From an uncultured Bacteroidales bacterium (GTDB lineage Bacteria > Bacteroidota > Bacteroidia > Bacteroidales > CAZJKL01), in NCBI GenBank assembly GCA_964546655.1, contig CAZJKL010000001.1, positions 69,751 to 133,750 of the forward strand: 64,000 nucleotides of DNA, read 5' to 3'. The notes below the pieces were generated by a model. That model worked only from the letters and a program-made list of their open reading frames with translations, made no database searches and was not told where the DNA came from. Made by a program: the position numbers and the translations under genes. How positions within the stretch are numbered: the stretch's first letter is position 1; every line of letters begins with the position of its first letter. Positions 1-17,496 of the stretch are shown in pieces.

Positions 1-60
1 GCATATTTGTAAAAAGTAGATAAATTACAAAAAAGTTTATTTTTTCTCAAAAGCGAAAAA

Positions 61-367
61 TACACCAGTTGTTCGATCCCGAAAGCTTTCGGGAGTAACT
101 ACGAACAAAGTAAAAGTTAGGTTTTTAAAACAAACAAAAACAGCAACCAAATTGGGGGTAAAATCGGGGTACGAATTTGAGTCGTGCTCCGATTAAAATC
201 AATTGATTGATTGATTAGTAAGACCCCTTTGTGGTCAAAGGTTTGTAGCCAAATAAATGGCTACAAACCTCAGGACTTCTTCGAAGTCCAACATAAACAA
301 CATAAAATTTAAACAACTACAGTTTGTCAAGTGCGTTTCCGAAAGTTTTCGGAAGGAAACTACGCAC
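61..367. repeat. Palindrome-rich composite repeat block, copy 1 (module A 61-135, module B 305-367, extra hairpins between)
   Basis: Palindromes read directly: cccgaaagctttcggg 78-93; atcgggg-17nt-ctccgat 163-193; cctttg-tggt-caaagg 226-241; ggtttgtagcc-8nt-ggctacaaacc 240-269; ggacttc-ttc-gaagtcc 273-289; gtgcgt..ttccgaaagttttcggaa..acgcac 331-367. Modules A and B recur in the same order and orientation at 10885-11049. Confidence 0.8.
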
Positions 368-685
368 CACAGAAGATTATAGGTTGTGACCCTTCGCTTT
401 AGGCTCAGGGAGACAAGTTTTTTGTCATGCTGATGTTAAGAAGCATCTTTTCAAGACCACTAACTTTAATAGCTTCATTTTCTACCCGTCACTTTCTACA
501 CCATTCTGCACTCCGCCGGTGGGCGAACAGTGTTCAGATAACGAATATTAGACAGTTTTTTACATATTGAAAACTAGTAAGGTAATAAGCTGGAAAATCA
601 ATAATGTTAATTTTTGTTTTTTCTAATATTAAAGATTTTATTAAAAAATATTCTAAAAAAAAATTGTAATTTTTGAAAAACAGAT

Positions 686-693
686 TATATTTG
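686..693 (+). promoter_or_regulatory. Candidate Bacteroidota -7 promoter box (TATATTTG) upstream of abi gene
   Basis: Matches the TAnnTTTG -7 consensus. It lies 64 nt upstream of the ATG at 757. A hairpin acccgt..acgggt lies in the leader. Confidence 0.4.
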
Positions 694-756
694 CATTAAC
701 AGAACCCGTTTTGCATACCATAAGAACTGCAGACGGGTCATTTTATTTTATTGTCT

Positions 757-1656
757 ATGACAAACAAACATGCATTTACAATAAATGACCATATTATCCT
801 TCTTAAAGAAAGAGGAATGATTTTTAAAAACGAAATCTTCGCAAAACAATGCTTGAAAAACATCAGCTATTATAGACTAAAAGGCTATTGGTGGGATATG
901 CAAGAAAATAGTATAAATCACACATTTAAACCTAATTCATATTTTGAAGATGTAATTGAAAGATATAATTTTGATAAAAAATTACGATTAATTTTATTTG
1001 ATGCAATTGAATATATTGAAATTGCATTACGAACTAAAATGATTTATCATTTATCATTAAATTATGGTGGATTGTGGTATTTAAATTCTTCTTTGTTTGA
1101 TGATAGTGAAATTTATGAAAACACTATAAAAGAACTTGAAAAAGAGTTTTTAAGAAGTCAAGAAATTTTTATTAAAGATCAGCGAAATAGATATCCTAAT
1201 GAAAATGCTGATGCTTGGAAAATACTCGAAGTTGCATCTTTTGGAACATTATCAAAACTTTATAAGAATTTAAAACATCAACTTCCCGAAAAATCACTAA
1301 TTGCAAAAGAAATGGGATTAAATCTAAATAAAGAACTTTCAAGTTGGTTAGAATCAATTGGTTATGTCAGAAATATTGTAGCACACCATTCACGGCTTTT
1401 AAGCAGAAATATGGTCAAAAAACCTATTGAACATTTAAAAAATTCTAGTAGTAATTGGTTTTCTATTAATTTGCTACCTGTTCAAACTAAAAAACCATTT
1501 TTAATAATTTCATGTATGATTTATATTTGTAATAACATTGAACCAAATAATGATATTAAGAGTAAATTATTAAAATTATTTGAAGAAAGTGAAAATGTCC
1601 CTATTTATAAATTAGGCTTTTTAAATAATTGGAATAAACAACCAATTTGGGAATAA
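757..1656 (+). CDS. Abi_2 (AbiD/AbiF-like) abortive-infection family protein, HEPN-type
   Basis: N-terminal LLKERGMIF...NISYYRLKGYWW signature recalled from the Abi_2 family. Rx4H motif RNIVAH at 1369-1386. ATG at 757 preferred over the TTG at 751 used by the track. Confidence 0.8.
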   Translation: MTNKHAFTINDHIILLKERGMIFKNEIFAKQCLKNISYYRLKGYWWDMQENSINHTFKPNSYFEDVIERYNFDKKLRLILFDAIEYIEIALRTKMIYHLSLNYGGLWYLNSSLFDDSEIYENTIKELEKEFLRSQEIFIKDQRNRYPNENADAWKILEVASFGTLSKLYKNLKHQLPEKSLIAKEMGLNLNKELSSWLESIGYVRNIVAHHSRLLSRNMVKKPIEHLKNSSSNWFSINLLPVQTKKPFLIISCMIYICNNIEPNNDIKSKLLKLFEESENVPIYKLGFLNNWNKQPIWE

Positions 1657-1744
1657 TAATATTAATAATTTAAAATAAGCAACGTCAGTTTTTACGCCCT
1701 TCTGCAATAAAACAATACGAATATTACTAATGTATTTAATTATT

Positions 1745-1809
1745 TTATTTGGGTTCGTGAATGCCTTTGGAATTTCGTAATTCGTAATTATTCATTCGTA
1801 ATTCGTAAC
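1745..1809. repeat. Hairpin + TCGTAAT heptamer repeat element (short copy)
   Basis: gggttcgtgaatgcctttggaatt followed by five in-register heptads tcgtaat|tcgtaat|tattcat|tcgtaat|tcgtaac (1775-1809). Same element family as 4111-4213 and 12048-12183. Confidence 0.75.
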
Positions 1810-1814
1810 TAAAA

Positions 1815-1966
1815 CTACTCACCCCCCACCAAACTAACACTACCAGTAAACACCTGATTATTGTACGATAAAATATAAAAATAAACGCCATCGGTGAGGT
1901 TTTTGCCGTTAAAGTCGTTATTGTAAGCATTGCTTTTAAAAACCAAGTTACCCCAACGGTTAAAAA
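1815..1966 (-). pseudogene. Orphan fragment of a T9SS gliding-associated C-terminal domain (last ~50 codons only)
   Basis: Encodes [32 protein letters not shown]..., which matches the C-terminus of the 7997-10693 protein. About 100 nt (1868-1966) are almost identical to 8056-8154. Upstream of 1966 the reading frame is unrelated AT-rich filler. Confidence 0.8.
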
Positions 1967-2061
1967 AGAGGGTTGAATTAAAATATAATATATATATAAT
2001 AATGCTATAGAAAATATTTATTAAATTAGCACTCAAAATTATTTTAAATATAAAATCTATT

Positions 2062-2361
2062 ATGGAAAACAAGAATAGCATACTTGATTTTTTTAGAGCA
2101 AATAAGGAGTTATTAAGTAAACGTTTTAGAGTTATTAAAATTGGTATATTTGGTTCTTATGCAAGAGGAGAAGCAACAGAACAGAGCGATATTGACATAA
2201 TAGTTGAATTTGATGAAGATATAGATAGTATTTTTGACAGGAAATATGAATTAAAAGAATATTTAATGGCACATTTCAGAAAAAAAGTTGATTTATGTCG
2301 AGAAGGTGCAATAAAACCAATTTTCAAACAATTAATATTAAAAGATGCTATTTATGCATAA
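2062..2361 (+). CDS. mntA: MNT-type nucleotidyltransferase antitoxin
   Basis: GIFGSYARGEATEQSDIDIIVEF (GS-x10-DxD minimal nucleotidyltransferase motif). Overlaps the downstream DUF86 gene. Confidence 0.85.
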   Translation: MENKNSILDFFRANKELLSKRFRVIKIGIFGSYARGEATEQSDIDIIVEFDEDIDSIFDRKYELKEYLMAHFRKKVDLCREGAIKPIFKQLILKDAIYA

Positions 2362-2689
2362 TACCGATGAGGCAATATGCCTTAATATGTTAGAAGCTAT
2401 AAATAAAATTCAAGAAATTAGCAAGATATTCTCATCTTATGAAGATTTTGAGAAAGACTATATTAGGTTTGATGCTACATTGATGAATTTTGTAGTAATT
2501 GGGGAAATGGCAAGTAAGTTAAGCGACAAATTTAAGAAAGAACATAAAAAAACAGATTGGCGAAGAATTAGTGATTTAAGAAACATAATTGCACATGATT
2601 ATTTTGGAATTGACTCAAAAGAAGTATGGCAAATTATTAATAATAAATTACCTGAACTAAAAAAATACATTGAGGAATGTGCGATTTAA
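2345..2689 (+). CDS. hepT: HepT (DUF86) HEPN ribonuclease toxin
   Basis: Rx4HxY motif RNIIAHDY at 2579-2602. Size and pairing with the MNT gene fit the family. Confidence 0.85.
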   Translation: MLFMHNTDEAICLNMLEAINKIQEISKIFSSYEDFEKDYIRFDATLMNFVVIGEMASKLSDKFKKEHKKTDWRRISDLRNIIAHDYFGIDSKEVWQIINNKLPELKKYIEECAI

Positions 2690-2790
2690 CAACCGCAACT
2701 TTTAAACAAGAAAGTACAATTTTGTACGGAAGTGAGCGATTGGGTGAAAATAAAGAAACAAGAGTTTTGGAAAATGTAAATTATTTATAG
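2690..2790 (+). pseudogene. RHS-derived handle fragment (TTATFKQESTILYGSERLGENKETRVLENVNYL*), truncated by the TA block
   Basis: Starts immediately after the hepT stop. ttgtacggaagtgagcgattgggt at 2722-2745 recurs at 3459-3482 and 5291-5314. The frame ends where the minus-strand toxin gene ends. Confidence 0.7.
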
Positions 2791-3053
2791 TGACCTCTAA
2801 GAGAGTGAATATGAATACAATTTTCTGAAATCACTTCGTAAAACAAACGATGTTCACGATTTATTCTACGAGACCAACAGCCAGTAAGGGAGTGTTTAAG
2901 AAGTTCTGGTTTGCCAGTACCAGTAAAAGGATGTTCTGTTAGTTCTTCAAGTAGCAAAGTAATCTTATTGACAACGGCTTTATTGCCTGACTTTTTATGA
3001 TGTCTTATATCTTCTTTGGATTGTTCAGAAAAGCGTAAGGTGTAGCTACTCAT
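2781..3053 (-). CDS. Txe/YoeB-family type II toxin (copy 1)
   Basis: HHKKSGNK...HPFTGTGKPELLKHSLTGCWSRRINREHRLFYEV...GHYK matches the recalled Bacteroidota YoeB/Txe pattern. 4-nt overlap with the upstream antitoxin gene. Confidence 0.85.
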   Translation of the reverse strand: MSSYTLRFSEQSKEDIRHHKKSGNKAVVNKITLLLEELTEHPFTGTGKPELLKHSLTGCWSRRINREHRLFYEVISENCIHIHSLRGHYK

Positions 3054-3271
3054 AAACTATCAATAAACGTTTTAATATTATCGGCTTTTACTTCTGTAAA
3101 TTTTCCTTCGACAATTTGTTTTTTACTCTCTATTATTTTATTTACAAATTCTTCAGAATAAACATCTTTTGTGTTGATGCGAAACTTAATTTTTAAAGCT
3201 TTCATAATCGCTTTTAATGTTTCTAATTGAGACACATCTTCGGTATAGGCTGTAATATTAATTGTTTGCAT
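3050..3271 (-). CDS. Small antitoxin (DUF2683-like) of the YoeB-like toxin (copy 1)
   Basis: MQTINITAYTEDVSQLETLKAIMKALKIKF. Start at the internal ATG (3271), by analogy with the paralog at 11343-11558, which begins MQTINITAY. Confidence 0.7.
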   Translation of the reverse strand: MQTINITAYTEDVSQLETLKAIMKALKIKFRINTKDVYSEEFVNKIIESKKQIVEGKFTEVKADNIKTFIDSL

Positions 3272-3287
3272 AATGTTTAGTTTTTTA

Positions 3288-3295
3288 CAAAAATA
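3288..3295 (-). promoter_or_regulatory. Candidate -7 box (TATTTTTG on minus strand) for TA operon copy 1
   Basis: TAnnTTTG match 16 nt upstream of the antitoxin ATG. It sits inside a ~115-nt block almost identical to 11559-11680. Confidence 0.5.
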
Positions 3296-3386
3296 ACAAA
3301 ATACCAACTCTTAAACAAAACAAGTTATTTATATTTTTTAATATAAAAATAAAATTTTTATATCTTGCACTACCTAAACTAAACAA

Positions 3387-3497
3387 ATGAATTGCTTAAA
3401 ATTAACATATAATAAAACTGCTTTCACAACCGCAACTTTTAAACAAGAAAGCACAATTTTGTACGGAAGTGAGCGATTGGGTGTAAAATTAAAATGA
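3387..3497 (+). pseudogene. Toxin-deleted RHS cassette remnant (36 codons, MNCLKLTYNKTAFTTATFKQESTILYGSERLGVKLK*)
   Basis: Carries the RHS handle and then stops. Its TGA overlaps the ATG of the next gene (ATGA at 3494-3497). Confidence 0.65.
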
Positions 3498-3997
3498 TAA
3501 TTATGCGTGTATTTTTAGTCTTTGTTTTTGTATTAATTACAAATTTAATATTTTGTCAAAAAAAGTCAGATACTATATATATAATTATAAAAGATGCTGT
3601 TTTTAATGATAGTGTATTTTACTACAATGATGGGTTAAATAATTTATATAAAAAAATAAATAACAAATTTTACATAAATAGTAAAAAGAAATGTAACAAA
3701 AAAGCAAGATCAATTATAGGATGGCACTCTGAAGATAAATATAAAGTATTTGTTTTTAAAAATAAAAAAGGGAAAAGAATAGAGGAAGGATATTGGAGTT
3801 ATGAGGTGTGGAGAAATGGATATTATATTTTTTATCATAAAAATGGGGTCAAAAAATCAGAAGGAGTATTTTATATTAATGAAAAGATTGGGAAATGGTA
3901 CTATTATGATGAAAAAGGAGTATTGATTAAGACAGAAAACTTCCAAGATATTTATAATATATTAGAAAAATATAATCGTTACCCAAAAATAGAATAA
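3494..3997 (+). CDS. MORN-repeat, YwqK-family immunity/antitoxin-like protein with signal or lipoprotein leader
   Basis: Hydrophobic leader ending LIFCQ. Repeated G-x-W/Y motifs (EEGYWSYEVWRNGYYIFYHKNGVKKSEGVFYINEKIGKWYYYDEKG) are typical of MORN/YwqK repeats. Confidence 0.7.
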   Translation: MIIMRVFLVFVFVLITNLIFCQKKSDTIYIIIKDAVFNDSVFYYNDGLNNLYKKINNKFYINSKKKCNKKARSIIGWHSEDKYKVFVFKNKKGKRIEEGYWSYEVWRNGYYIFYHKNGVKKSEGVFYINEKIGKWYYYDEKGVLIKTENFQDIYNILEKYNRYPKIE

Positions 3998-4042
3998 ATT
4001 TAGTATTCATTCTTGGGCGATTCCAGAGATAGTCTGTAACCA

Positions 4043-4213
4043 CATGGGGCACAACTTTAAGTCGTACCCCATGTAAAAAGAGTAATTACTCACATATTTA
4101 ATTATTTTTTTGGGGTGTTCGTGAATCTTCGGTTTACTCACTTACCAAATTATTTTTATTGGGTTTCGTGAATGCCTTCGGCATTTCGTAATTCGTAATT
4201 TGTAATTCGTAAT
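4043..4213. repeat. Composite intergenic repeat element: conserved-loop hairpin, two ttcgtgaat stem-loop units, (TCGTAAT)4
   Basis: catgggg-17nt-ccccatg at 4043-4073. aatgcc-ttc-ggcatt stem-loop at ~4170-4184. Heptads at 4186-4213 (tcgtaat, tcgtaat, ttgtaat, tcgtaat). Paralogous to 11986-12183 and partly to 1745-1809. An inverted copy of the hairpin lies at 163-193. Confidence 0.85.
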
Positions 4214-4277
4214 TATTTTATGGCTTTGCGTGAAAATTTAAAAAAATCCCAATTAGTAGAAATTCGAATAAAATTAT

Positions 4278-4285
4278 TATATTTG
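4278..4285 (+). promoter_or_regulatory. Candidate -7 box (TATATTTG) for rpn-like gene
   Basis: TAnnTTTG match 18 nt upstream of the ATG at 4304. Confidence 0.45.
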
Positions 4286-4303
4286 CATAAATTTCAAAAG
4301 ATT

Positions 4304-5188
4304 ATGACCACAACTCTAAAAGACAAATATATAAACCCTTTTACCGATTTTGGGTTCAAGCGTATATTTGGAGAAGAACCTAATAAGGATATATTAATAG
4401 ACTTTTTAAATACCTTGTTTTCTGGCGAATTAATAATTAAGGAGTTATCATTAAAACCACCATATAAAACATCAAAAACAAAAGAAGAACGAAAAGTTGT
4501 ATTTGACTTATACTGCAAAACCTCAACTGACGAACGAATTATTATTGAAATGCAAAAAGCAAAACAAAAATATTTTAAAGATCGCAGTGTGTTTTACAGT
4601 ACTTTCCCCATACAAGAACAAGCACAAACAGGAGAATGGGATTTTCAACTCAATGCAGTTTATACAATAGGTATTCTCGATTTTGTTTTTGACGACCAAG
4701 ATAAAGACAGACAATTAGTTAGTGAGGTAAAATTAATAGAAACCAAAACATCAAAAGTTTTTTTCGATAAACTTACGTTTTTATACTTGCAAATGCCCAA
4801 CTTTAATAAGCAAGAGCATGAACTAGAAAATAGATTTGACCAATGGCTATACATACTAAAAAACTTACCTAAGTTTGAAAAATATCCAAATATAATTAAC
4901 GATAAGATATTTAAAAAACTATTTAAAATAAGCGAGATAGCAAATTTTAACAAAGAAGAGATAATGGCCTATGAAGAAAGTCTTAAAACATTCAGAGACC
5001 TTAAAAATTCATTAGACACAGCACGCGAAGAAGGAAGAGAAGAAGGAAGAGAAGAAGGCGAACAAATAGGAATTACAAAAATTATAATAAACGGACACAA
5101 AGAGGGCTTTTCAATAGAGATGTTGAAAAAAATAACAGGATATACCGAAAAAGAGATTAAAGAAATAATTAAAAACAACAAACTTTAA
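4304..5188 (+). CDS. Rpn-family recombination-promoting nuclease / PD-(D/E)XK putative transposase
   Basis: KYINPFTDFGFKRIFGEE...DILIDFLN...VFDLYC...IIEMQKAKQKYFKDRSVFY is the recalled Rpn/YhgA-like signature. Start moved to the ATG at 4304, downstream of the -7 box. 12-nt tandem repeat encoding EEGREEGREEGE near the C-terminus. Confidence 0.85.
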   Translation: MTTTLKDKYINPFTDFGFKRIFGEEPNKDILIDFLNTLFSGELIIKELSLKPPYKTSKTKEERKVVFDLYCKTSTDERIIIEMQKAKQKYFKDRSVFYSTFPIQEQAQTGEWDFQLNAVYTIGILDFVFDDQDKDRQLVSEVKLIETKTSKVFFDKLTFLYLQMPNFNKQEHELENRFDQWLYILKNLPKFEKYPNIINDKIFKKLFKISEIANFNKEEIMAYEESLKTFRDLKNSLDTAREEGREEGREEGEQIGITKIIINGHKEGFSIEMLKKITGYTEKEIKEIIKNNKL

Positions 5189-5203
5189 TAACCAGTTTGC
5201 GTC

Positions 5204-6547
5204 ATGAGTTATGTTGGGTTTAATACAATATCAACCTATAAGCAACAATCATCAAGCGAAGGCGGTAAATTTATTTTAGAATCGCAAGAATTGTACGGAA
5301 GTGAGCGTTTGGGCGAGAACAAAGAAACAAGACTTTTGGCAACAGTAAAATTTACATTTAATGGTTATTTAAATAATAAGTTTAAAAATATAATATACCG
5401 AACACCAATAGTTAATACACTAAATGACAGCACCTACAAAAGTTTTGGTTACACAAATTATGAGTTAACAAATCACTTAGGCAATGTTATGGCAACAGTT
5501 AGTGATAAAATTACACCAAACCAAGTTGATGTTGTAAACAATAATATTATTAACTTTAGTGCTATGGTAACAAGTGCTAATACATATTACCCATACGGTA
5601 TGCTAAAACCAAACACTAGTAGCTTAAGCGGTTATAGGTTTGGTTACCAAGGGCAAGAAAAAGATAGCGAAATAAAAGGCGAAGGCAACTCTTATAATTT
5701 TAGTTTTAGAATTTATGATAGTAGAATAGCTAAATTTTTAAGTCCTGACCCTTTAAGATTTAGATTCCCATTTTATTCTCCTTATCATTTCTCCTCAAAC
5801 TCGCCTATTGCTGCGGTTGATTTAGAAGGATTACAGCCGTGGGTTAGAAGTTACAATGTAGATATAGATAATAAAAGTTATGTTGTGAAAATAAATCCTT
5901 TACGACCACAGAGATTTAAGATAAGGTATCATAATACGAATTTTTTACAAAAAAGTGCTGCCAAATATGCTTTTAAAGGGAAAAGAAAATTTTTTGAAGA
6001 CGGTAGGAGATATAGTCCTTTTTTTCGACAAATAGGTGGTAAACCTTCTTCTATGAATTTGTTTTACCCAAATAATAGTCAGAAATTTAATGCTAATGAA
6101 TATGATGATGATGGTAAAATAACAAGGCATGGTAGTGAAGATTATAATGATTTAGCAGTTAATTCTTTAATTGATGGAAAAACTCCCAAAGAATTTGTTG
6201 ATGCTTTGTTAGAACAAAATCCCAATGTAATATTAAATATAATTCCTAATCATGCTGCTTCTCAACATAATATGCGAAATGGCGATACTACTAGATATGT
6301 TGGTAGTCCAAATGAAGCATCAGATAAATTTACTGATGATAGAGGAATTAATACTAAAATACTTTTGGGTAATTATAAAAACATTAATGTTATTCCAAGA
6401 TACAATATTTCTCCTATAGAAAAGTATACTTTTCATCATTCTATTTTAATTCCACCATATAAGCACGATGGAATGGGTATAATCCTTTATTTTGAAATAA
6501 AGAATACACCACCGGTAAGTCGAGTATATTGCCCTACATATATGTAA
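5204..6547 (+). CDS. Orphan RHS C-terminal cassette: last YD-like repeats + RHS repeat-associated core + unrecognised ~237-aa C-terminal (toxin) domain
   Basis: LYGSERLGENKETR handle (aa 30-43). YELTNHLGNVMATVSD. Core YYPYGM...YRFGYQGQEKDSE...YNFSFRIYDSRIAKFLSPDPL...SPYHFSSNSPIAAVDLEGL ends at aa 210 (nt 5833). The remainder (5834-6544) matches no family I recognise. No RHS shell lies upstream: the rpn gene ends 16 nt before the ATG. Confidence 0.85.
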   Translation: MSYVGFNTISTYKQQSSSEGGKFILESQELYGSERLGENKETRLLATVKFTFNGYLNNKFKNIIYRTPIVNTLNDSTYKSFGYTNYELTNHLGNVMATVSDKITPNQVDVVNNNIINFSAMVTSANTYYPYGMLKPNTSSLSGYRFGYQGQEKDSEIKGEGNSYNFSFRIYDSRIAKFLSPDPLRFRFPFYSPYHFSSNSPIAAVDLEGLQPWVRSYNVDIDNKSYVVKINPLRPQRFKIRYHNTNFLQKSAAKYAFKGKRKFFEDGRRYSPFFRQIGGKPSSMNLFYPNNSQKFNANEYDDDGKITRHGSEDYNDLAVNSLIDGKTPKEFVDALLEQNPNVILNIIPNHAASQHNMRNGDTTRYVGSPNEASDKFTDDRGINTKILLGNYKNINVIPRYNISPIEKYTFHHSILIPPYKHDGMGIILYFEIKNTPPVSRVYCPTYM

Positions 6548-6560
6548 ATTTTTGAAAAGT

Positions 6561-7901
6561 ATGAGACTATTATTCGTGATTTTAGTTATTATCAATTCAT
6601 TTTTTTTGTTTTCACAAGAAAATTCAAATTATAATAATTTAATTAAATCTTTAAGGAAATCTGTTTGGAAATATAAAGATAAATCTATTAGTTTATATTC
6701 TGAATGTGATAAACTCACAACATACTCAAATGATTCAGTAATTGCCTTACTTTATAGTACAGATGAAGAAATACCTGATGGTAAAATAGTTGTTTTTAAT
6801 AAATTTAACAACGAAAACAGTCTTTTTAGTAAAAAAACTATTTCAAAAAGTTCTTTTTATTTTATCAAAAATAAAATTATATATAACCAACAGAAAGATG
6901 AGGATGCTTACCAAAGTATATATAGTTTTAATTTATATAATGGAAGTATTCGTAAACTATGTGAAATGAATAATGATTATAAATTAACAGATGAATTCTT
7001 AATTACTGATTATTCCATTTATACAAATTTTCAATTATTTGAAACAGGAAAAGTTTATAATGAAGATAAGATATTAAATAATAATAAATTAATCTATTTA
7101 TTCAATGATACTATTTTATTTAAAAATGACTCAACCAAGTCATTAATACTATATGATTTAAAAGATTCAAAAATCATTAAAGAGGTAAATAATAATAGTT
7201 TATACAAAGTATTACATCAAAGAAGTAATTTATTGTTAAACAAAAAAAACGAGTTAAAACTATATATTTATAAGGTAGGAGGAGAAAAAGTAAATCATAA
7301 AATTGAAAGTAAATTATATAAAATTGATATTAATAATTTGCAAATTACCGACTCAATACATTTTATTGACATCCCTTATTATATGGATATATTTGACTAT
7401 AAAAATATAATCATAGAATCCATAAGTAATAATGTTTTATATTTTTTACAAACAGAAAAAATAAATAATAATAATATAAATTCAAGAAATGTATATTTGA
7501 GTCGTTTTAATTATGAAAACTTCAGCAGTAATTGGAGGTGTTTAATTTATAGTCTCGATTCTTCTAGTTATGGATATAAATTTTATAATAAAAACAATCT
7601 TAGTTATTATTATAAGTTTAAAGAAGATTCAAATAATATTTATGCCCTTTATTCCGAATCATTATATGTTATAAATAAAACAAGTGGCGAAAAATTACTT
7701 GAATATAAATATAACAAAACTTATATGAAGTCATTGTATTTACTAAAAGATATGATTTTAGTAAATACAGATAAAAATTATGTTATAGTTTTTGATAAAA
7801 ATAATTTGAAAATACTTGGATTTCTTGATAAAATTCAAATTATTGATGTGATTGATGATAAGTACTTATTATTTAATAATAAATTAATTAAGGTTTTTTA
7901 A
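6561..7901 (+). CDS. Secreted Asn/Lys/Tyr-rich repeat protein; candidate cognate immunity protein of the RHS tip
   Basis: Starts 13 nt after the RHS cassette stop. Leader MRLLFVILVIINSFFLFSQ. ATG at 6561 preferred over the TTG at 6552. No recognisable catalytic motif. Confidence 0.65.
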   Translation: MRLLFVILVIINSFFLFSQENSNYNNLIKSLRKSVWKYKDKSISLYSECDKLTTYSNDSVIALLYSTDEEIPDGKIVVFNKFNNENSLFSKKTISKSSFYFIKNKIIYNQQKDEDAYQSIYSFNLYNGSIRKLCEMNNDYKLTDEFLITDYSIYTNFQLFETGKVYNEDKILNNNKLIYLFNDTILFKNDSTKSLILYDLKDSKIIKEVNNNSLYKVLHQRSNLLLNKKNELKLYIYKVGGEKVNHKIESKLYKIDINNLQITDSIHFIDIPYYMDIFDYKNIIIESISNNVLYFLQTEKINNNNINSRNVYLSRFNYENFSSNWRCLIYSLDSSSYGYKFYNKNNLSYYYKFKEDSNNIYALYSESLYVINKTSGEKLLEYKYNKTYMKSLYLLKDMILVNTDKNYVIVFDKNNLKILGFLDKIQIIDVIDDKYLLFNNKLIKVF

Positions 7902-7996
7902 AACATAAATATGTTTTTATTATACGTATTTAATACCTACTTAAATGAAGTCTCCCTGCGTAAAAATCTTTGTTTCTTTGCGTAACAATAAACCCT

Positions 7997-10693
7997 CTAC
8001 CTAGTTCCAATAACGCTAACATTTCCTGTAAAAACATCACCATCAGGAGAAGATAAAATATAAAAATAAACCCCATCGGTGAGGTCTTTGCCGTTAAAGT
8101 CGTTATTGTAAGCATTGCTTTTAAAAACCAAGTTACCCCAACGGTTAAAAACTTCAAGATTCCAAGTTTGTGGTGTTATGCCACCAATAAAAAAGAAGTC
8201 ATTAACACCATCGCCATTAGGCGTAATAATATTAGGTATATTAATATTACAAAATTTTGTGCTTACATTGGTTGTTGTTGTGTAGCTTCCACAATCATTT
8301 GTAATAGTTAAACTATAAGTACCTTCTTTTGCTTCAATAGTTTGAGTTGTTTCTCCCGTTGACCAAAGAAAAGAAGAACCATTGTTTTTAGCATTTAATA
8401 AAACAGTTTCATCATTGCAAACAGTTGTATCATTAATAATAACATCATAAGGCAAAGGTTTAACATTAATAGTTAATGATTCAAAATTAAAACAATTATT
8501 ATTATAAGAAAACACCTTATATTGTACCGTATCATTAGGTTTAGCCCAAGGGTTAATAATAGTTGAGTCGCTTAAATTTAACGAAGGTCGCCATCTAATT
8601 GTTAAACCCGAAGTAATAGCATTAAGCTGAACACTATCCCCATCACAAATAGTAATATCATCACCAACTTCAATATTAGGAACTGTTGTAACCTGAACAT
8701 TAACAATATCACTATTTCTGCAATTATTATCATCGGTAACTTCAACGGTATAAGAAGTATTAATTAAAGGCGAAGCAATAGGGTTAGCAATAAAAGCATC
8801 ATTTAAACCATCGCTTGGAGTCCAAACAAAACCGCCTACGCCAGTAGCATTTAATTGAACATTTGTACCGTAGCAAATATTTTCATCATTACCCGCATTA
8901 ATATTAGGAATATTATTAACAGTAATTAAGATATCGTCAGAATTAGAACAACCATTGCCATCGGTAACAGTAGCCGAATATAAAGTAGAAATACTAGGCG
9001 AAGCAATAGGGTTAAAAATATTATAATTACTTAACCCTGCATCAGAACCCCAAACAATATTACCAACACCAGTAGCATTAATTTGGATATTATCGCCATT
9101 ACAAATACTAGCATCTAAACCAGGAGCAGGCAAAACAGTAATATTAACCGAAGCAGAACCACTGCAACCACTATTATCGGTAACAGTAACCGAATGTAAA
9201 CCCGATTGAGTAACATTAAAAGTAGCATTTTGAGAGTTATCTTGCCATAAATAAGAAGCAAAAGGATAAGAAGCATCAAGCACAAAGTTATCACCTTGGC
9301 AAATAGTAGCATCATCGCCAATATCAATAACAGGAAGTTCAGAAATTTCAATATCTTGCGAAAAAGTTTCGGTAATACCACCTAAAGTAATGTTTAGCTT
9401 AACATTATAAGTACCAATGCCACCATACAAATGAGTAGGGTTAGGTTCACTAGAAGAGCCACCATCACCAAAATCCCAAAGCACATTATCATATTCAACA
9501 TCAGGCATAAAAAACTCAGTATTACTCCCTAAACAAGCTTTATCATACGAAAACTCCTGCTTAGTAAATATCGAATTGTAAAAATTGGGAAGACCCAAAT
9601 ATACATCTCTATCTGCTGTTAAAAAACAAGGATATGTATAATTGCAAATTAATCCTTGATTATTCGGATTGCTTATAACCCCTAAAGAATATATTTTATT
9701 GGCAAAAGTTGTAGCAATTGAATAATATATTTTACCATCAGGACCTAATTGTAATGCTCCGCATATTAAAGATGTATTTGTTTCGTAAATAATTTTTTTG
9801 GAATTTTCAATATCTTGTTGATTTCCTGACAATAAATTATATTGATTTAGTTTTATTTTCCCTTGTGAAGAAATATATAATAAATTATTATCAGGTGAAA
9901 ATTCGACACCATAAGGGTTATCATTATTCAATGAAAAAGTCATTGCATTTGATAATATTCCAGTAGAATTATTAAAATCAAATAATTCAAAATTTTTCAA
10001 ATATGTATTAGCGGAAACAATTTTTTTACCATTATGTGATGCTTTTAAATATCCAATAGCATTAGTGCCGTTATTACCTAAATATAAGTTAGTTATATTA
10101 ATTATAGGAATTACATTTAAACCATCTTTCGTAAGTAAATAACAATTAAATGCATTAGAATTAAAAAGACGAGTAATAATCCAAAAATCTGAATTATTAC
10201 GATGTTTAACAACTGTAACTTTTTCACAAGTTGGAGTAATAATAAGTATATTTTTATTACTTGTAATATCCCCTCCCCCGCCATTTAAGTTCATATCTAA
10301 CTCTGAATATCTTAATCCATTTATGCCTGCTTCTGCATCAATAGTAAAAATATAATAAATATTTTTTGATTTTGGTTTTTTAACAATTATTGCTGATTGT
10401 GTACTGCTATTATGCCCCATTAACCCTATTCCATTAGGCATGATATTATGTGTTCTATCCCATACAGTTAATCCATCAGTATAAAACAATAAATTTCCTA
10501 AACTGTCACAAATAGAAGCACATCCCTCCATTGTGTTCATCTGCCCATCAGTTAAAGCAATAGGCGTTCCGCTATTAAAATCAATTCCTGCGTTATTTCC
10601 AAAATACCAAATATTACCTTCTTTTTGGGCGTAAGTATTTAATGTAAATAAAATTAAAAAAAAGAATAAAAAGTATTTAATAGTAAATTTCAT
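7997..10693 (-). CDS. T9SS-secreted adhesin-like protein with gliding-motility-associated C-terminal domain
   Basis: Signal peptide. N-terminal propeller-like region. PKD-like segment ([17 protein letters not shown]). Five tandem ~65-75-aa Cys-containing Ig-like repeats (ICxGDxxxLxA...). C-terminal [12 protein letters not shown]...FNRWGNLVF...GVYFY sorting domain. Confidence 0.85.
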
Positions 10694-10789
10694 TATTTGT
10701 GTTTAATTAAAAAACAAGCTAAAATAATAAAAGAAAATAAAAAAGTGTGATTAAATATACAGTTTTTCTTAATTGTGAGTTTTTAGAAA

Positions 10790-10897
10790 TTAGTTCTCAA
10801 TTTCTATTATTTGTTTAATTTGACATTGATTATTAGGTAAATAGTGTGATGCTACATCCCATATAATTTCATAGTCAACACCAAAATATTCCCTGTG
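10790..10897 (-). pseudogene. 3' remnant of a second HepT (DUF86) gene, truncated by a palindromic element
   Basis: Minus strand reads HREYFGVDYEIIWDVASHYLPNNQCQIKQIIEIEN*, parallel to HDYFGIDSKEVWQIINNKLPELKKYIEE of the intact HepT. The frame is cut at the palindrome 10897-10921. Confidence 0.7.
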
Positions 10898-11049
10898 GTT
10901 CGTAGTTTGTAACTACGAACCAAATAAAAGTTAGTTTTTAAAACTAACAAGTACCGCATTAATTATAAATAAATTATTTTTAATTGTAGTTAAAAAACTA
11001 CAGTTTATAAAATGCGTTTCCGAAAGTTTTCGGAAGGAAACTATCGCAT
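10885..11049. repeat. Palindrome-rich composite repeat block, copy 2 (modules A and B)
   Basis: ggttcgtagtt-tgt-aactacgaacc at 10897-10921. gttag-ttttt-aaaa-ctaac. tgtagtt-aaaaa-aactaca. atgcg..ttccgaaagttttcggaa..cgcat at 11012-11049. Collinear with 61-367. Confidence 0.8.
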
Positions 11050-11056
11050 AACACCA

Positions 11057-11100
11057 GAAAACAAAGAAACAAGAGTTTTGGCAAATGTAAATTATTTATA
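11057..11100 (+). pseudogene. RHS handle fragment (ENKETRVLANVNYL*) abutting TA block copy 2
   Basis: gaaaacaaagaaacaagagttttggcaaatgtaaattatttata aligns with 2747-2790 and with 5315-5350 inside the intact cassette. Confidence 0.6.
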
Positions 11101-11352
11101 ATGACCTTTAAGAGAATAAATAAACAAAGTGTTATTTTCAATATTATAAATAAACCGATTTGTTTTATCAATACGACGCGACCATTTTCCAGATAATTGA
11201 TGCTTTAGTGCTTCAGGTTTTCCAATGCCTTTATATGGATTTTCTAATATAGCGTTTTTAAGTTCAATAATCCTTTTCTGAATAATGGTATTATTTGTTT
11301 TTTTCCAATAATCAATATGCTCAAGAGCTAAAGGAGAAATAACTATTTCCAT
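11092..11352 (-). CDS. Txe/YoeB-family type II toxin (copy 2, diverged)
   Basis: NPYKGIGKPEALKHQLSGKWSRRIDKTNRFIYNI...SLKGHYK. Same family as 2781-3053 but with many substitutions. Confidence 0.85.
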   Translation of the reverse strand: MEIVISPLALEHIDYWKKTNNTIIQKRIIELKNAILENPYKGIGKPEALKHQLSGKWSRRIDKTNRFIYNIENNTLFIYSLKGHYK

Positions 11353-11558
11353 AAATTGTCAAATTCAATAGAAGATACTTTTTTGCCTTTACCTGATTTA
11401 ATTGTTTTTTCTGCATCAAGAACCATATCTACAAAATTCTTATTGTAGGTTTCACTAGGCGAAACATCAAACTTAATTTTTAAAGCCTTCATAAAAGCTT
11501 TTAAAGCTTCAATTTGTGAGATGTTTTCGGTATAGGCTGTAATATTAATTGTTTGCAT
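11343..11558 (-). CDS. Small antitoxin (DUF2683-like), copy 2
   Basis: MQTINITAYTENISQIEALKAFMKALKIKF. N-terminal ~30 aa are near-identical to copy 1 and the C-terminal half is diverged. 10-nt overlap with the toxin gene. Confidence 0.75.
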   Translation of the reverse strand: MQTINITAYTENISQIEALKAFMKALKIKFDVSPSETYNKNFVDMVLDAEKTIKSGKGKKVSSIEFDNLWK

Positions 11559-11574
11559 AATGTTTAGTTTTTTA

Positions 11575-11582
11575 CAAAAATA
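11575..11582 (-). promoter_or_regulatory. Candidate -7 box (TATTTTTG on minus strand) for TA operon copy 2
   Basis: Same position and sequence as 3288-3295. Confidence 0.5.
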
Positions 11583-11692
11583 ACAAAATACTAACTCTTA
11601 AACAAAACAAGTTATTTATATTTTTTAATTTGAAAATAAAATTTTTATATCTTGCAATACCTAAACAAAAACAAACAGTGAAGATGTAAATT

Positions 11693-12022
11693 ATGGTTAG
11701 TGAAAAAATAATTAAAAGACTTTTAGTTCTAGTAAAATCAACTTTCGTGATCGCAAGTTGGTTGATGTATTATTTATATAAAAGTGAAAGAATTGAATAT
11801 TCAATAAATGTATTATGGAGAAATATAAATGAATATTCTTTATATGTTTTTGTGCTTTTGATAATGGTGGAATTTTTTTTAAAGGATAAAAAACAAATTT
11901 TCCTCTCTTTTATTTGTATATTAACAGCTTTTGTTTTAAGTCAAAACATCACTGCCGAAGGAACAAAAATAGATAGTTGGATAGACACAACTTTAAGTCG
12001 TACCCCATGTAAAAAAGAGTAA
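11693..12022 (+). CDS. Small predicted membrane protein (about three hydrophobic segments); possible orphan immunity gene
   Basis: Hydrophobic stretches LLVLVKSTFVIASWLMYYLY, YSLYVFVLLIMVEFFL and IFLSFICILTAFVL. The ATG overlaps a handle-like remnant (acagtgaagatgtaaattatgg). The 3' end runs into the repeat element, so the C-terminus may be repeat-derived. Confidence 0.4.
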   Translation: MVSEKIIKRLLVLVKSTFVIASWLMYYLYKSERIEYSINVLWRNINEYSLYVFVLLIMVEFFLKDKKQIFLSFICILTAFVLSQNITAEGTKIDSWIDTTLSRTPCKKE

Positions 12023-12183
12023 TTACTCACATATTTAATTGTTTTTTTGGGGTGTTCTTGAATGCCAAAGGCATTTCGTAATTTTCACTTATATCTCGTA
12101 ATTCATAATTTGTAATTCGTAATTATTATTGGTTTTCGTGAATACCTTCGGCATTTCGTAATTCGTAATTTGTAATTCGTAAT
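11986..12183. repeat. Composite intergenic repeat element (copy with two stem-loop + heptamer units)
   Basis: cacaactttaagtcgtaccccatg (left hairpin arm missing). aatgcc-aaa-ggcatt and aatacc-ttc-ggcatt stem-loops. Heptads at 12096-12123 and 12156-12183. Confidence 0.85.
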
Positions 12184-12413
12184 TATTAATTACTTTCTAT
12201 TATGATTCAATTAACAACCTGATAAACTGGTATTAACCCTTAATAATTAAGTATTTCACATTGCGTATTAAAAAATAATTTATAAAAAGTTCAAATAAAA
12301 TAAGGTTGAAAAAATAAAAATAAAGAAGAAAAAAGTATGAAGGTTAAAATTAATTTTATAAATTTAAATGTTTAAATTATAATTTAGAAATTTAATAATT
12401 GGAGAATAAAAAT

Positions 12414-14501
12414 ATGAACAAAAAAGCATCACTAAAGGTTACTTCACCTAAAAGTTTATACTATCATATTGATGAAGTTAGCAATGAAAAAAGAAGATTT
12501 GAAAATGTATTTCAATCTGTATCGAGAATGATTCTTGGTAATCCCGACAACATAGAAAAAGTTAATATTAACGGAAAAAATACTTATGATTTTAAAGTAT
12601 TTCGTCAGGGGAAAAAGCACATTGTTGGTATGCATGAAGAAATAAACAGTTTTGTTTCGTTTGTTAAAGATGCTGCTGAAGGTGGCTCTTCTGCCGAAAT
12701 GGCTTTCGTTTTAATTGGCGAACCAGGAAACGGTAAAACTTATTTAGTTGACTACTTAACAAAAATATACCGAAATTTTATTTCTCTTCCAGAAAATCGT
12801 CGTTACACTTTTAGATATAAAAACCTAGAAAGATTAGGCGGATACGGTAAAATTAATTATATCGAATCACAAACATTCGAAGACCCTATGGTTTTAGCTA
12901 TGAACTTGTCTGAAACTAAAGCCGAAAATATTAAATTTTTATCTAATCAAGGGTTAAGCGACAAAAAGATTGAACAACTTTATAATAATTATCGTCCACT
13001 TGGAGCATGTTCGTATTATGTTTTAGAACAAATTAAAGAATACTGCAATGGCGATATTGATAAATTAATTAATGAATTTATCGAAATAGTTCCTGTTCCA
13101 ATCAGCGAATCAAGAGGAACTGTTACAGGTAAATATGCAGCTAAAGATAAAATTACATCATCGGCTGTAGATTTATTAGGAGAAGAATCTATTACAAGAT
13201 TATTACATATAACAAATACCGATAACCCTTACCGTTTCGATTTAAGAAGAGGTGCTTTAGCAAGAGTTGCTGGTGGTGGTATTCACTTTGCAGATGAAAT
13301 TTTTAAAAATAAAAAAGACCTTGTTCAAGTATATCTTGGAGTAATTCAAAACAGAACTATTGAAATAGAAGGTTTTAAATGGCCTCTTGATACTTTAATT
13401 ATTGCAACTAGTAATAACTCAGAATTTGCTCGTTTCCTTGAAGAAAAAGAACAAGCACCTATTGTTGACAGATGCAGAATTACTTATATGTCGCACAATA
13501 CAAACTTTAAACTTCAACAACAATTAACCGAATATTCAATTGGTGGTGATGGTATTAAAACTACTTTCTTAAACGAAAAACTACACATTGATCCAAACTT
13601 AAATTATGCTATTTCGGTTGCTATAATATTATCTAGAATGCCAAAATCAGATAAATTATCACCAATCGAAATGATGAAATTAGCTGCAGGTGAAGTAGCC
13701 GGAGAAAAAAGTATTAAAACTTTAGGCGAAGTTATAAGCGAACTTAATAGCGACCCAGATGTTACTAAACGCTTTGGTCAAAAAGGTTTAGGACACAGAA
13801 ACCTTGGTCGTGCTATTCAGGTTTTATTAGAACAATCTGAAACACAAGAAGGAAAATGTATGTATGCTGGAGATATTTTTAAATCTCTTGAAAGAGTAAT
13901 TCTTGATTATGTTAATGATGCTAATGATAGAGCTAAATACCTTAATGATTTAAAAATTGCTAAAGGATTACATAGAAAAAATGTTATGACAACTATTTTT
14001 AATGCATATATGGATGAACCTAATGCTGTTGAAAAAGATGTTATGAACTATGTAAATATGATTATTGGTATTGATGCTAAAAATCTTGGTGCCGATAAAA
14101 TTTGGACATATCGCGATCCTCAAACAAATAAACTTGTTCCTTTAAAAATAGATGAGTCTTTTATTAATAGTGTTGAAGATCGAATTGGTCTAAAAACTCA
14201 AGAACAAAAACAAAGCTATAGAACAACTATCTCTAAAATATATGGTCAAAAAATGATTAAAGACCCTAATTATAATTTTATGGATAATAATGATTTAGTT
14301 AAAGCTGTTACTGATGTTCGATTAAAATCTGATATAGCTGGAGCAGGTAGCTTGGTTGGTGCATTATCTAATAGAACTAATGAAGAAAACCAAGTATTAT
14401 ACAATAGAATGATTGATACAATGATAAAAAAGTTGGGCTATTGTAGAACTTGTGCCGAAAAAACAATCGAATATTTCTGTACTCAAGATGATGTGAATTA
14501 A
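12414..14501 (+). CDS. prkA: PrkA/YeaG-family AAA+ protein (putative Ser protein kinase)
   Basis: Walker A GEPGNGKT (12717-12740). Overall layout resembles E. coli YeaG / B. subtilis PrkA. ATG at 12414 preferred over the TTG at 12399. Confidence 0.85.
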   Translation: MNKKASLKVTSPKSLYYHIDEVSNEKRRFENVFQSVSRMILGNPDNIEKVNINGKNTYDFKVFRQGKKHIVGMHEEINSFVSFVKDAAEGGSSAEMAFVLIGEPGNGKTYLVDYLTKIYRNFISLPENRRYTFRYKNLERLGGYGKINYIESQTFEDPMVLAMNLSETKAENIKFLSNQGLSDKKIEQLYNNYRPLGACSYYVLEQIKEYCNGDIDKLINEFIEIVPVPISESRGTVTGKYAAKDKITSSAVDLLGEESITRLLHITNTDNPYRFDLRRGALARVAGGGIHFADEIFKNKKDLVQVYLGVIQNRTIEIEGFKWPLDTLIIATSNNSEFARFLEEKEQAPIVDRCRITYMSHNTNFKLQQQLTEYSIGGDGIKTTFLNEKLHIDPNLNYAISVAIILSRMPKSDKLSPIEMMKLAAGEVAGEKSIKTLGEVISELNSDPDVTKRFGQKGLGHRNLGRAIQVLLEQSETQEGKCMYAGDIFKSLERVILDYVNDANDRAKYLNDLKIAKGLHRKNVMTTIFNAYMDEPNAVEKDVMNYVNMIIGIDAKNLGADKIWTYRDPQTNKLVPLKIDESFINSVEDRIGLKTQEQKQSYRTTISKIYGQKMIKDPNYNFMDNNDLVKAVTDVRLKSDIAGAGSLVGALSNRTNEENQVLYNRMIDTMIKKLGYCRTCAEKTIEYFCTQDDVN

Positions 14502-14512
14502 AAAATTAACAC

Positions 14513-15886
14513 ATGACTAAAAAATATAATAAATTATTGCAATTTGTTAAAAAAAACAACATTGATGTTGATAGCAATGAAGCCGTAAAACGAGAGTTGG
14601 AAATAATAAAAAATAGCAATAATCCTGATATTAAATTTAATAGTTCTTATTTGGGTTTGTATGATTTAAGCGATTTTGAAGTTATTCAAAAAATGAATTT
14701 AACTCCAATTAATCCATTAATTTCATTAAAAACTTTAGATGAGCTATTAGATCAAGATAAACAAAGAGTTAATGATGGTTTTCCAAGACGAATTCGTCTT
14801 GGAAAACTTGTTAAACCTTTGCAGGGAAATAAATCAAAAGTTGTTATAGTACCAACTACTACCGAACCTAAATTTTATCACGATAATTCGATAACCGAAG
14901 ATGATGAAGATAGCACTGGTGGCTCGGGAGAAGGTGAAGAAGGCGAAGTTATTGGCGAACAACAAGCTCAACCGCAACAAGGCGAGGGCGAAGGTCAAGG
15001 TGCCGGTGAAGGCAATTCTGCTGGTCACGATATTAGTCAGGAAGCATTCGATTTAGGTAAAATTATAACCGAAAAATTCCAATTACCTAATCTTAAAGAT
15101 AAAGGTTCTAAAAAATCTTTTTCTAAATATATCTACGACTTAACCGATAGAAATAGAGGCTTTGGTCAATTGTTAGATAAAAAAGCAACTTTAAAAAAAG
15201 TTATAGAAACTAATATCCTTTTAGATAATATCAAAGGAGGCGAATACTTTAATCCCGAAAATCTTATTCTAAATCCTAAAGATCAAATTTTTAGAATATT
15301 ATCGCAAGAAAAAGATTTCGAAACTCAAGCAGTTGTTTTCTTTGTTCGTGATTATTCTGGCTCAATGCAAGGCGAACCTACCGAAGCAATAACAACACAA
15401 CATTTGCTTATTTATAGTTGGCTAATGTTTCAATATCAAAATAATGTTGTTACAAAATTTATTGTTCACGATACCGACGCTAAAGAAGTTGAAGATTTTT
15501 ACACCTATTATCGTTCACAAGTTGCCGGAGGAACAAAAGTTGCCCCTGCTTTTAAACTTGTAAATAAAATTATTGACGAAAATCAATATCAAAAAGATTA
15601 TAATATCTATATATTTTATGGTACCGATGGTGATGATTGGGATAATGACGGTAAAGAACTCTTAGAAAACATTGATATTCTATTAAATAAAGTAAATAGA
15701 ATAGGTATTACTGTTGCTAAAAACGGTTGGTCAAGTAATGAAGCAAAAACAACAGTAGAAAAAAACATCGAAAAATCAGGATATTTACAAAGTAAATCAG
15801 ATTTAATTAAAATGGATACATTTAAATCTAAAGGTGTTTCTGAAGATAGAATTATTGAAGGTATTAAAAAAATTGTAGGCGAATAA
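14513..15886 (+). CDS. yeaH: YeaH/YhbH (DUF444) family protein with vWA-like MIDAS motif
   Basis: Acidic Gly/Glu-rich linker (GGSGEGEEGE...GEGEGQGAGEG). DYSGSM (DxSxS) at 15350-15367. Canonical position after prkA. Confidence 0.85.
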   Translation: MTKKYNKLLQFVKKNNIDVDSNEAVKRELEIIKNSNNPDIKFNSSYLGLYDLSDFEVIQKMNLTPINPLISLKTLDELLDQDKQRVNDGFPRRIRLGKLVKPLQGNKSKVVIVPTTTEPKFYHDNSITEDDEDSTGGSGEGEEGEVIGEQQAQPQQGEGEGQGAGEGNSAGHDISQEAFDLGKIITEKFQLPNLKDKGSKKSFSKYIYDLTDRNRGFGQLLDKKATLKKVIETNILLDNIKGGEYFNPENLILNPKDQIFRILSQEKDFETQAVVFFVRDYSGSMQGEPTEAITTQHLLIYSWLMFQYQNNVVTKFIVHDTDAKEVEDFYTYYRSQVAGGTKVAPAFKLVNKIIDENQYQKDYNIYIFYGTDGDDWDNDGKELLENIDILLNKVNRIGITVAKNGWSSNEAKTTVEKNIEKSGYLQSKSDLIKMDTFKSKGVSEDRIIEGIKKIVGE

Positions 15887-17490: not shown

Positions 17491-17496
17491 TTATAT

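Follow-up and report, generated by a model that had tools for sequence, protein, structure and literature searches.

Probable remains of a Bacteroidota-type RHS toxin orphan cluster in a variable island of an uncultured Bacteroidales bacterium

The stretch of DNA analyzed here (the window) comprises 64,000 nucleotides (nt) from an uncultured Bacteroidales bacterium (GenBank assembly GCA_964546655.1, contig CAZJKL010000001.1, positions 69,751 to 133,750 of the forward strand), and the window is also part of the 103-kb JGI metagenome contig Ga0207193_1000226. An affiliation with Bacteroidota is indicated by T9SS (type IX secretion system) sorting domains, by PorZ and by the taxonomy of the homologs. 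In this AT-rich genome (27% GC), a variable island of ~12 kb lies between meaB and prkA, and within it the region from ~2685 to 12190 carries fragments of RHS (rearrangement hotspot) toxin genes among toxin-antitoxin (TA) modules and small open reading frames (ORFs). The initial annotation had described this locus as an array of orphan RHS C-terminal cassettes sharing a conserved recombination handle; as an array it was overstated, since the locus comprises a single toxin cassette, a handle joined to a candidate immunity gene, and two scraps. The toxin cassette and the ORF behind it are organized as follows:

5192..6547, plus strand: intact orphan rhs 3' cassette (ATG at 5204, 447 amino acids (aa)), recognized by TIGR03696, homolog search and Fluviicola alignment
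5291-5354, plus strand: handle of the intact cassette, reading …GGKFILESQELYGSERLGENKETRLLATVKF… in frame
between handle and core, plus strand: last shell repeats of the intact cassette (YELTNHLGNV…), from alignment to the Fluviicola main gene
5585-5833, plus strand: RHS-associated core, ending in VDLEGL (PIAAVDLEGL)
5834-6547, plus strand: C-terminal ORFan domain of 237 aa (residues 211-447) with no relatives
6552..7901, plus strand: 449-aa ORF with a signal peptide, beginning 4-13 nt after the cassette stop (ATG 6561 gives 446 aa)

The protein encoded by 5204-6547 passes the NCBIfam model TIGR03696 over residues 128-210 with 46.6 bits against a cut-off of 32.5, with PIAAVDLEGL as its (D/x)xxG(L) cleavage-site block at the end, which answers the check proposed for it with RHS core models. 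Pfam returned no match for the 447-aa protein, and its residues 1-211 stayed empty even at E<=10, the RHS_repeat family included; ahead of the core the protein has no more than ~125 aa of shell end. It is an RHS repeat-associated core protein and not a full-length RHS/YD-repeat shell. A search against 5.8 billion proteins yielded 261 matches, all to the N-terminal ~30-60% of the protein and most of them named RHS repeat-associated proteins of Bacteroidota; the best are 43-52% identical, and no protein searched exceeds 52% identity to the RHS part. With 120 RHS homologs as tblastn queries, RHS-like sequence in the whole window was limited to 2689-2784 and 5195-6547. The claim that only this copy of the handle runs on into an RHS core is borne out, tblastn having revealed no other core. 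A degenerate core was considered and rejected, as YDSRIAKF and VDLEGL are common variants of this clade (YDSRIAKF occurs in 18-31 of 88 homologs, DLEG in 10 of 71).

Pairwise alignments to the best homologs fade directly after DLEGL. Beyond this point the C-terminal domain (residues 211-447) matched only itself and, weakly, one PKD-repeat protein among 1.84 billion representatives; it has no match in Pfam or the PDB, and its single-sequence AlphaFold model is unusable (predicted local distance difference test score, pLDDT, of 31). At the other end, the RHS frame opens at 5192, directly after the stop codon of a PDDEXK_2 gene, and homology to an internal part of the main rhs gene of Fluviicola taffensis begins at the first residues of the cassette. 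The initial annotation had placed the ATG 16 nt after an Rpn-nuclease gene; the arrangement stands, the gap being 15 nt. The cassette is thus a 5'-truncated rhs fragment with a core and a variable C-terminal tip, that is, an orphan rhs-CT (C-terminal) module. The ORF that follows (446-449 aa) has no family match and no relative in the metagenome scan, and only its position makes it a candidate immunity protein.

The sequence block held in common by the copies was located by scanning the window for the 24-nt string TTGTACGGAAGTGAGCGWTTGGGY, which occurs at exactly 2722, 3459 and 5291, always on the plus strand and at the very positions first reported. No further copy was found in the window even with 3 mismatches allowed, and none of 100 dinucleotide shuffles contained a match (0 expected by chance), so that the copies do stand out from shuffled AT-rich sequence. 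The ENKETR(V/L)L continuation lies at 2746 (not 2747, as initially given), 5315 and 11057. The self-comparison that had been proposed was performed by repeat finding and self-BLAST, and extends the handle copies to 42-71 nt at 85-94%: 2685-2754 matches 3422-3492 (94% over 71 nt), 2722-2787 matches 5291-5354 (85% over 66 nt), 2746-2811 matches 11057-11122 (91% over 66 nt) and 11057-11098 matches 5315-5354 (86% over 42 nt). Perfect runs reach 17 nt where the intact cassette is compared with scraps 1 and 2, and at most 31 nt where the two scraps are compared with each other. As for the weak trace suggested at ~11670, a 14/15 match (GAAGATGTAAATTAT) does exist there; its alignment score is reached by 7-20 of 500 shuffles, which does not place it clearly above chance, and in DNA of 27% GC it is marginal.

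Outside the intact cassette, the fragments and the genes lodged among them are:

2685..2787, plus strand: RHS remnant 1, reading TTATFKQESTILYGSERLGENKETRVLENVNYL and then a stop (37-aa ORF at 2677-2790)
2781..3053, minus strand: YoeB-family toxin 1, 90 aa (Pfam PF06769, 78.8 bits)
3050..3271, minus strand: DUF2683 antitoxin 1, 73 aa (Pfam PF10884, 59.2 bits)
2781-3307, minus strand: YoeB/DUF2683 pair 1 as a whole (Pfam)
3380..3497, plus strand: RHS remnant 2, with a 36-aa ORF at 3387-3497 reading MNCLKLTYNKTAFTTATFKQESTILYGSERLGVKLK and then a stop
3494..3997, plus strand: 167-aa ORFan with an N-terminal signal/transmembrane helix and MORN-like repeats
4050..4217, no strand: right-end block of unit A, a gene 3'-end remnant followed by a hairpin/heptad repeat of the REP (repetitive extragenic palindrome)-like kind
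11057..11098, plus strand: RHS remnant 4, reading ENKETRVLANVNYL and then a stop, directly after a REP-like hairpin at 10990-11048
11092..11352, minus strand: YoeB-family toxin 2, 86 aa (PF06769, 81.2 bits), 43% identical to toxin 1
11343..11558, minus strand: DUF2683 antitoxin 2, 71 aa (PF10884, 60.3 bits), 51% identical to antitoxin 1
11092-11558, minus strand: YoeB/DUF2683 pair 2 as a whole (Pfam)
11693..12022, plus strand: 109-aa hydrophobic ORFan, in the slot of unit B that matches remnant 2 and the 167-aa gene of unit A
11986..12192, no strand: right-end block of unit B, with REP-like repeats

As initially proposed, these other copies of the handle are either cut by a TA block on the minus strand or joined to a small gene. 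Remnant 1 is cut on its left at the HepT stop codon and on its right by the YoeB cassette. Remnant 2 begins ~75 nt upstream of the motif, its RHS homology ends after LG, and the stop of its ORF overlaps the start of the next gene; this direct passage into the 167-aa gene is the pattern expected from deletion of a toxin part, leaving a handle-plus-immunity stub. The 167-aa gene is a candidate orphan immunity gene, left behind by the deletion of its toxin part. Its product scores 15.4 bits against MORN_2 in Pfam, below the cut-off of 29.6 (E=0.022), has no homolog in the 5.8 billion proteins and gave an unusable single-sequence AlphaFold model (pLDDT 45), in which only the N-terminal helix is confident. 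The 109-aa ORF, which shows no significant family match, may likewise be an orphan immunity gene.

By adjacency and Pfam, both gene pairs are type II TA modules of the YoeB/Txe-DUF2683 kind. Alignment of 2640-3500 with 10980-11760 showed that on the left the scrap and the last YoeB codons are 91% identical, that in the center the rest of both TA genes falls to 47-50% nt identity (43% and 51% at the protein level), and that on the right the 5' part of the antitoxin gene and the non-coding DNA upstream of it (3182-3379 in unit A) rise again to 87-97%; further right, the unit ends 4050-4217 and 11986-12187 are 77% identical. Remnants 1 and 4 end at an identical junction with the YoeB gene. They are two copies of one 1.1-1.5 kb unit, which consists of an ENKETRVL scrap, a TA module, a variable slot, an end block and a REP element; given the shared junction and the shared left and right ends, they are not independently displaced cassettes.

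The two YoeB/DUF2683 cassettes (2746-3379 and 11057-11678) are mosaic in their own right: their flanks, including the first ~28 codons of the antitoxin and ~100 nt upstream, are 87-97% identical, and the toxin and the C-terminal part of the antitoxin only 43-51% identical as proteins. This suggests that the toxin and neutralizing core was exchanged between conserved ends, or that the ends were gene-converted. In Flavobacterium sp. UBA5153 (3595-4546 of the locus examined, L006), an antitoxin with the same DUF2683 N-terminus (84% nt identity over 114 nt) has a MazF/PemK-like toxin as its partner in place of YoeB, and two RHS-core orphan cassettes lie ~0.5 kb upstream of it; the N-terminal module of the antitoxin thus appears to be reused with different toxins. 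A general association of the TA module with the RHS handle is unsupported: this is the one genome of nine sharing the antitoxin N-terminus that has RHS-core fragments nearby, and a handle scrap near the antitoxin was found in none of the nine.

Complete arrays of other Bacteroidota place the same block at the boundary of their orphans. In Fluviicola taffensis (L002), the main protein (>3000 aa) contains DUF6443 and matches TIGR03696 toward its end. Behind its gene come three orphans (418, 458 and 490 aa), and a small gene lies downstream of each; the main gene and the first two orphans are 90-93% identical over 291-383 nt, in a block that begins 24-26 nt before the YGSSRLG codons. In Chitinophaga caeni (L004) and a further locus (L003), the shared blocks span 360-680 nt at 85-96%, and several begin 12-27 nt before the motif. 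At the protein level, FKQESTILYGSERLG of the window aligns to FAQTEKHIYGSSRLG of the Fluviicola main gene, and the two are colinear through YELTNHLGNV…, the core and the DxxG end. Among the 120 listed homologs, 19 start at most 35 residues upstream of the YGSxRLG motif. Across three Bacteroidota arrays that are unrelated to one another, the block …Q.E..LYGSxRLG… recurs as the boundary of orphans, and since orphans of complete arrays match the main gene or one another from a point at or near it onward, its reading as an orphan handle is well founded for this clade.

The cassette belongs to the same clade as the DUF6443/RHS arrays of Fluviicola and Chitinophaga (35-43% identity over the first ~215 aa), has its handle motif at the same aligned position and is similar in size to their orphans (370-490 aa). 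In contrast, the shared blocks of those arrays measure 290-680 nt at 85-96% as against 42-71 nt here, and the Fluviicola array directly follows its >3000-aa main gene, whereas here the main gene is missing and one toxin tip is left. For RecA-dependent recombination, perfectly matching stretches of roughly 25-30 nt or longer are required. With perfect runs of 17-31 nt, recombination among the present copies would be marginal, working arrays sharing hundreds of nt. The shared recombination handle of the initial annotation thus holds as a boundary, lining up with the position where orphans of complete arrays begin to match the main gene or one another at 85-96% nt identity, but with 17-nt perfect runs to the intact cassette it is a poor substrate for recombination.

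The remaining genes of the island, as identified by domain search, are:

751-1656: Abi_2
2062-2689: MntA/HepT pair
4220..5188, plus strand: PDDEXK_2 (Rpn/transposase_31-like) gene (PF12784, 238.8 bits, profile positions 1-229 of 229)
7997-10693, minus strand: 898-aa T9SS-sorted protein

From 9.2 kb upstream of the window through its end (73 kb), ORF annotation and tblastn detected no RHS shell gene, which upholds the reported absence of a parent shell from the 64 kb and extends it upstream. The orphan module does not lie downstream of a full-length rhs gene: the 9.2 kb before the window encode LepA, an M28 peptidase, dNK and MeaB, after which come Abi_2 and the MNT/HepT pair, and downstream of the locus lie prkA and housekeeping genes (PrkA, SpoVR, Lon, PorZ, NrdD, DnaE and GyrB), the large ORFs being DnaE, Lon, PorZ, NrdD, GyrB and a PrkA-like one. 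The HepT stop codon is where remnant 1 starts, and that of PDDEXK_2 is where the intact frame opens, so both 5' ends were set by rearrangements with neighboring island genes. By its full-length profile match the gene before the cassette does belong to the PDDEXK_2/Rpn-like nuclease family, as the initial annotation held; a role in promoting recombination is putative.

The PDDEXK_2 gene also bears on expression. The -7 consensus of Bacteroidota promoters is TAnnTTTG, and a box of this type, TATATTTG, is present at 4278-4285; an in-frame ATG (4304) follows 18 nt later. The annotated start at 4220 is likely too far upstream, as the box precedes ATG 4304 and the first 39 residues of the long form lie outside the Pfam match, which sets in at residue 40; translation probably begins at ATG 4304. 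With gaps of 15 nt between PDDEXK_2 and the cassette and of 4-13 nt to the next ORF, co-transcription of the three genes is possible. The term "silent" used in the initial annotation is not supported for a cassette 15 nt downstream of a same-strand gene with a -7 box. A sigma-70 promoter scan was uninformative (98 sites versus 85 expected), Bacteroidota promoters being different.

Another contig from this sample (JGI Ga0207193_1000852, L016) carries a second short RHS-core gene. At 10001-11674 it encodes a 557-aa homolog (P0062) that matches TIGR03696 with 35.8 bits; the N-terminal 200 aa of this protein have no RHS character but resemble a beta-propeller/lactonase. Upstream of the gene a shell gene is absent, and RelE and MNT/HEPN modules lie downstream; the gene shares 61 nt at 93% identity with 5631-5691 of the window. 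This contig has 27.9% GC and carries the REP-like repeats of the window, from which it is probably derived from the same organism; that organism would then probably have at least two shell-less RHS-core genes among TA modules. Searches for a parent gene were less informative. The degenerate pattern YGSERLGENK(E/D) has 2 matches in the window and 0 in the metagenome and genome contig collections, a result with no bearing on a parent since the source genome lies outside them. The 48-aa handle peptide found only two small ORFs of this contig among the 5.8 billion proteins, in a search too insensitive to exclude a parent (protein P0001 was missed).

We consider the region from ~2685 to 12190 to be probably what decay has left of an orphan cluster of Bacteroidota-type RHS polymorphic toxins, set in a small toxin/defense island that TA modules and a PDDEXK_2 gene have reshaped. 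Intact systems of the clade consist of a giant DUF6443/RHS gene and, behind it, 3' cassettes. Each cassette begins near …Q.E..LYGSxRLG…, ~180 residues before the core end, and runs through the last shell repeats and the core to a variable toxin tip, with an immunity gene after it; by recombination within the shared block the main gene acquires a new tip, the old one being displaced. The present cluster would once have lain downstream of such a main gene, since lost or separated. Its sole whole survivor would be 5192-6547 with the secreted 449-aa ORF, and a second cassette would have lost everything between its handle and the secreted 167-aa gene. The YoeB/DUF2683 module would have been inserted into the RHS sequence a single time, directly behind ENKETRVL; the 1.1-1.5 kb unit thus formed was duplicated later, and its TA core was exchanged or diverged. 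The surviving small genes would act at most as retained immunity genes, and the intact cassette would be a spare, usable only with a matching main gene elsewhere in the genome.

Several points weigh against this account. Random ORFs are short at 27% GC, yet those of 447 and 449 codons are uninterrupted, which argues that the central cassette is not old debris and may be under selection; the same-strand neighbor with its promoter-like box would allow expression; a parent gene elsewhere in the genome is conceivable; and, given the shell-less RHS-core gene on the second contig, short forms could be functional in this organism rather than relics. On one alternative, which we regard as unlikely, the locus is an active silent reservoir, a full-length rhs gene elsewhere having the same handle and recombination moving the 5204-6547 tip with its immunity gene onto it. 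This would agree with the handle lying at or near the point where orphans of complete Bacteroidota arrays begin to match the main gene, with the intact cassette and downstream ORF, and with the normal core motifs; such switching is documented in Salmonella (cited in PMC7043789), and the displacement model is set out in PMC2935791. However, in the arrays examined orphans lie directly downstream of the main gene, whereas here none is found within 73 kb; the RHS part of the cassette is at most 52% identical to any of the 5.8 billion proteins; the handle of copies 1 and 2 was found in no other protein, albeit by an insensitive search; and perfect identity between copies is confined to 17-31 nt.

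Alternatively, the 447-aa protein might be a stand-alone module expressed from its own ATG, co-transcribed with the PDDEXK_2 gene and forming with the downstream gene an addiction or TA-like pair, for which there is precedent in the orphan Rhs-CT/RhsI of Salmonella (PMC7043789). We find this quite improbable: the position of the ATG, 15 nt behind a gene on the same strand that has a TATATTTG -7 box, the next ORF only 4-13 nt on and the second shell-less gene in what is probably the same organism speak for it, but the signal peptide of the 449-aa protein would keep it apart from a cytoplasmic toxin, and the ATG falls in what is ordinary internal shell sequence in homologs. It is similarly a very slim prospect that the short shell-less proteins (447 and 557 aa) are functional stand-alone units co-transcribed with mobile or defense genes, the handle serving as a landing or exchange site for TA modules and tips in an active cassette-exchange hotspot rather than a relic. 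That the repeats arose by chance in AT-rich DNA, or represent the TA cassette only and are unrelated to RHS, can be practically dismissed. Two of the four copies do ride on the duplicated TA unit and the trace at ~11670 is marginal, but not one match appeared in 100 shuffles, and remnants 1 and 2 translate to the block of the intact cassette and of the RHS proteins of other genera; the shuffles, the TIGR03696 match, tblastn and the Fluviicola alignment refute such an origin.

Read as a decayed orphan cluster, the locus is of a kind already well known, the displacement of rhs C-termini and orphan modules having been described in Enterobacteria (Jackson et al. 2009, PMC2935791; Poole et al. 2011, PMC3150448), and Salmonella orphan Rhs-CT/RhsI pairs being expressed from internal promoters and behaving as TA modules (PMC7043789). 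Like the enterobacterial orphan rhs-CT/rhsI modules, it has a 5'-truncated rhs fragment that keeps the shell end, core and variable tip and is followed by a downstream gene, a sequence block common to the copies, and scraps and immunity-only remnants. Unlike them, it has no main rhs gene within 9.2 kb upstream or in the window, its shared block lies ~180 residues before the core end and not at the core, its candidate immunity protein is large (449 aa) and secreted, and TA modules are embedded in its RHS scraps. The likeness drawn by the initial annotation thus holds for the RHS derivation and the shared boundary block, but not for the single cassette, the absent main gene and the TA-duplicated scraps. 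The orphan immunity clusters of gut Bacteroidales described in a preprint (PMC12247911) are similar in comprising small, fast-evolving, homolog-poor genes kept without a toxin beside toxin-system debris; here, in comparison, the 167-, 109- and 449-aa ORFs are candidate immunity genes, and no link to a type VI secretion system was seen in the window.

The local peculiarities, namely the lack of a main gene nearby, the TA module in the handle that was duplicated with it, and the ORFan toxin tip and candidate immunity genes, are of modest interest. The locus would offer a Bacteroidota example of RHS orphan array decay, with the main gene gone, tips deleted to handle-plus-immunity stubs and TA modules inside the handle, and leaves the current understanding of RHS systems unchanged. 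The …LYGSxRLG… orphan boundary helps to annotate many 350-500-aa "RHS repeat-associated core" proteins of metagenome-assembled genomes. As the toxin tip (237 aa) and the candidate immunity genes (167, 449 and 109 aa) are all ORFans, they may supply new toxin and immunity folds.

Regarding the island at large, no Rfam match was found in 1-13000, no tRNA lies at its borders and there is no compositional anomaly. REP-like intergenic repeats at 1723-1811, 4085-4217 and 12022-12192, which have no Rfam match, consist of a hairpin GAATGCCTTCGGCATT followed by TTCGTAA heptads and sit at the ends of island gene blocks. A second pair of hairpin repeats (GTAACTACGAAC… and GTTTCCGAAAGTTTTCGGAAGGAAAC) occurs at 95-145/10909-10958 and 309-366/10990-11048, that is, along the island's left edge and immediately ahead of RHS remnant 4; it is also present at 15317-15396 of the second contig of the sample and is thus probably a genome-wide family. 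An 88-aa fragment of CHU_C, the T9SS type B sorting domain, lies on the minus strand at 1815-2081 and is related to 7997-8260 (minus strand); a 100-nt patch of it agrees at 98% identity with the 3' end of the gene for the 898-aa T9SS protein (1867-1966 versus 8052-8151), with diverged flanks, and looks like a short gene-conversion tract. The right border of the island is formed by a conserved stress-kinase cluster at 12399-19740, in which a prkA/DUF444/spoVR operon is followed by a second protein with a PrkA C-domain (747 aa).

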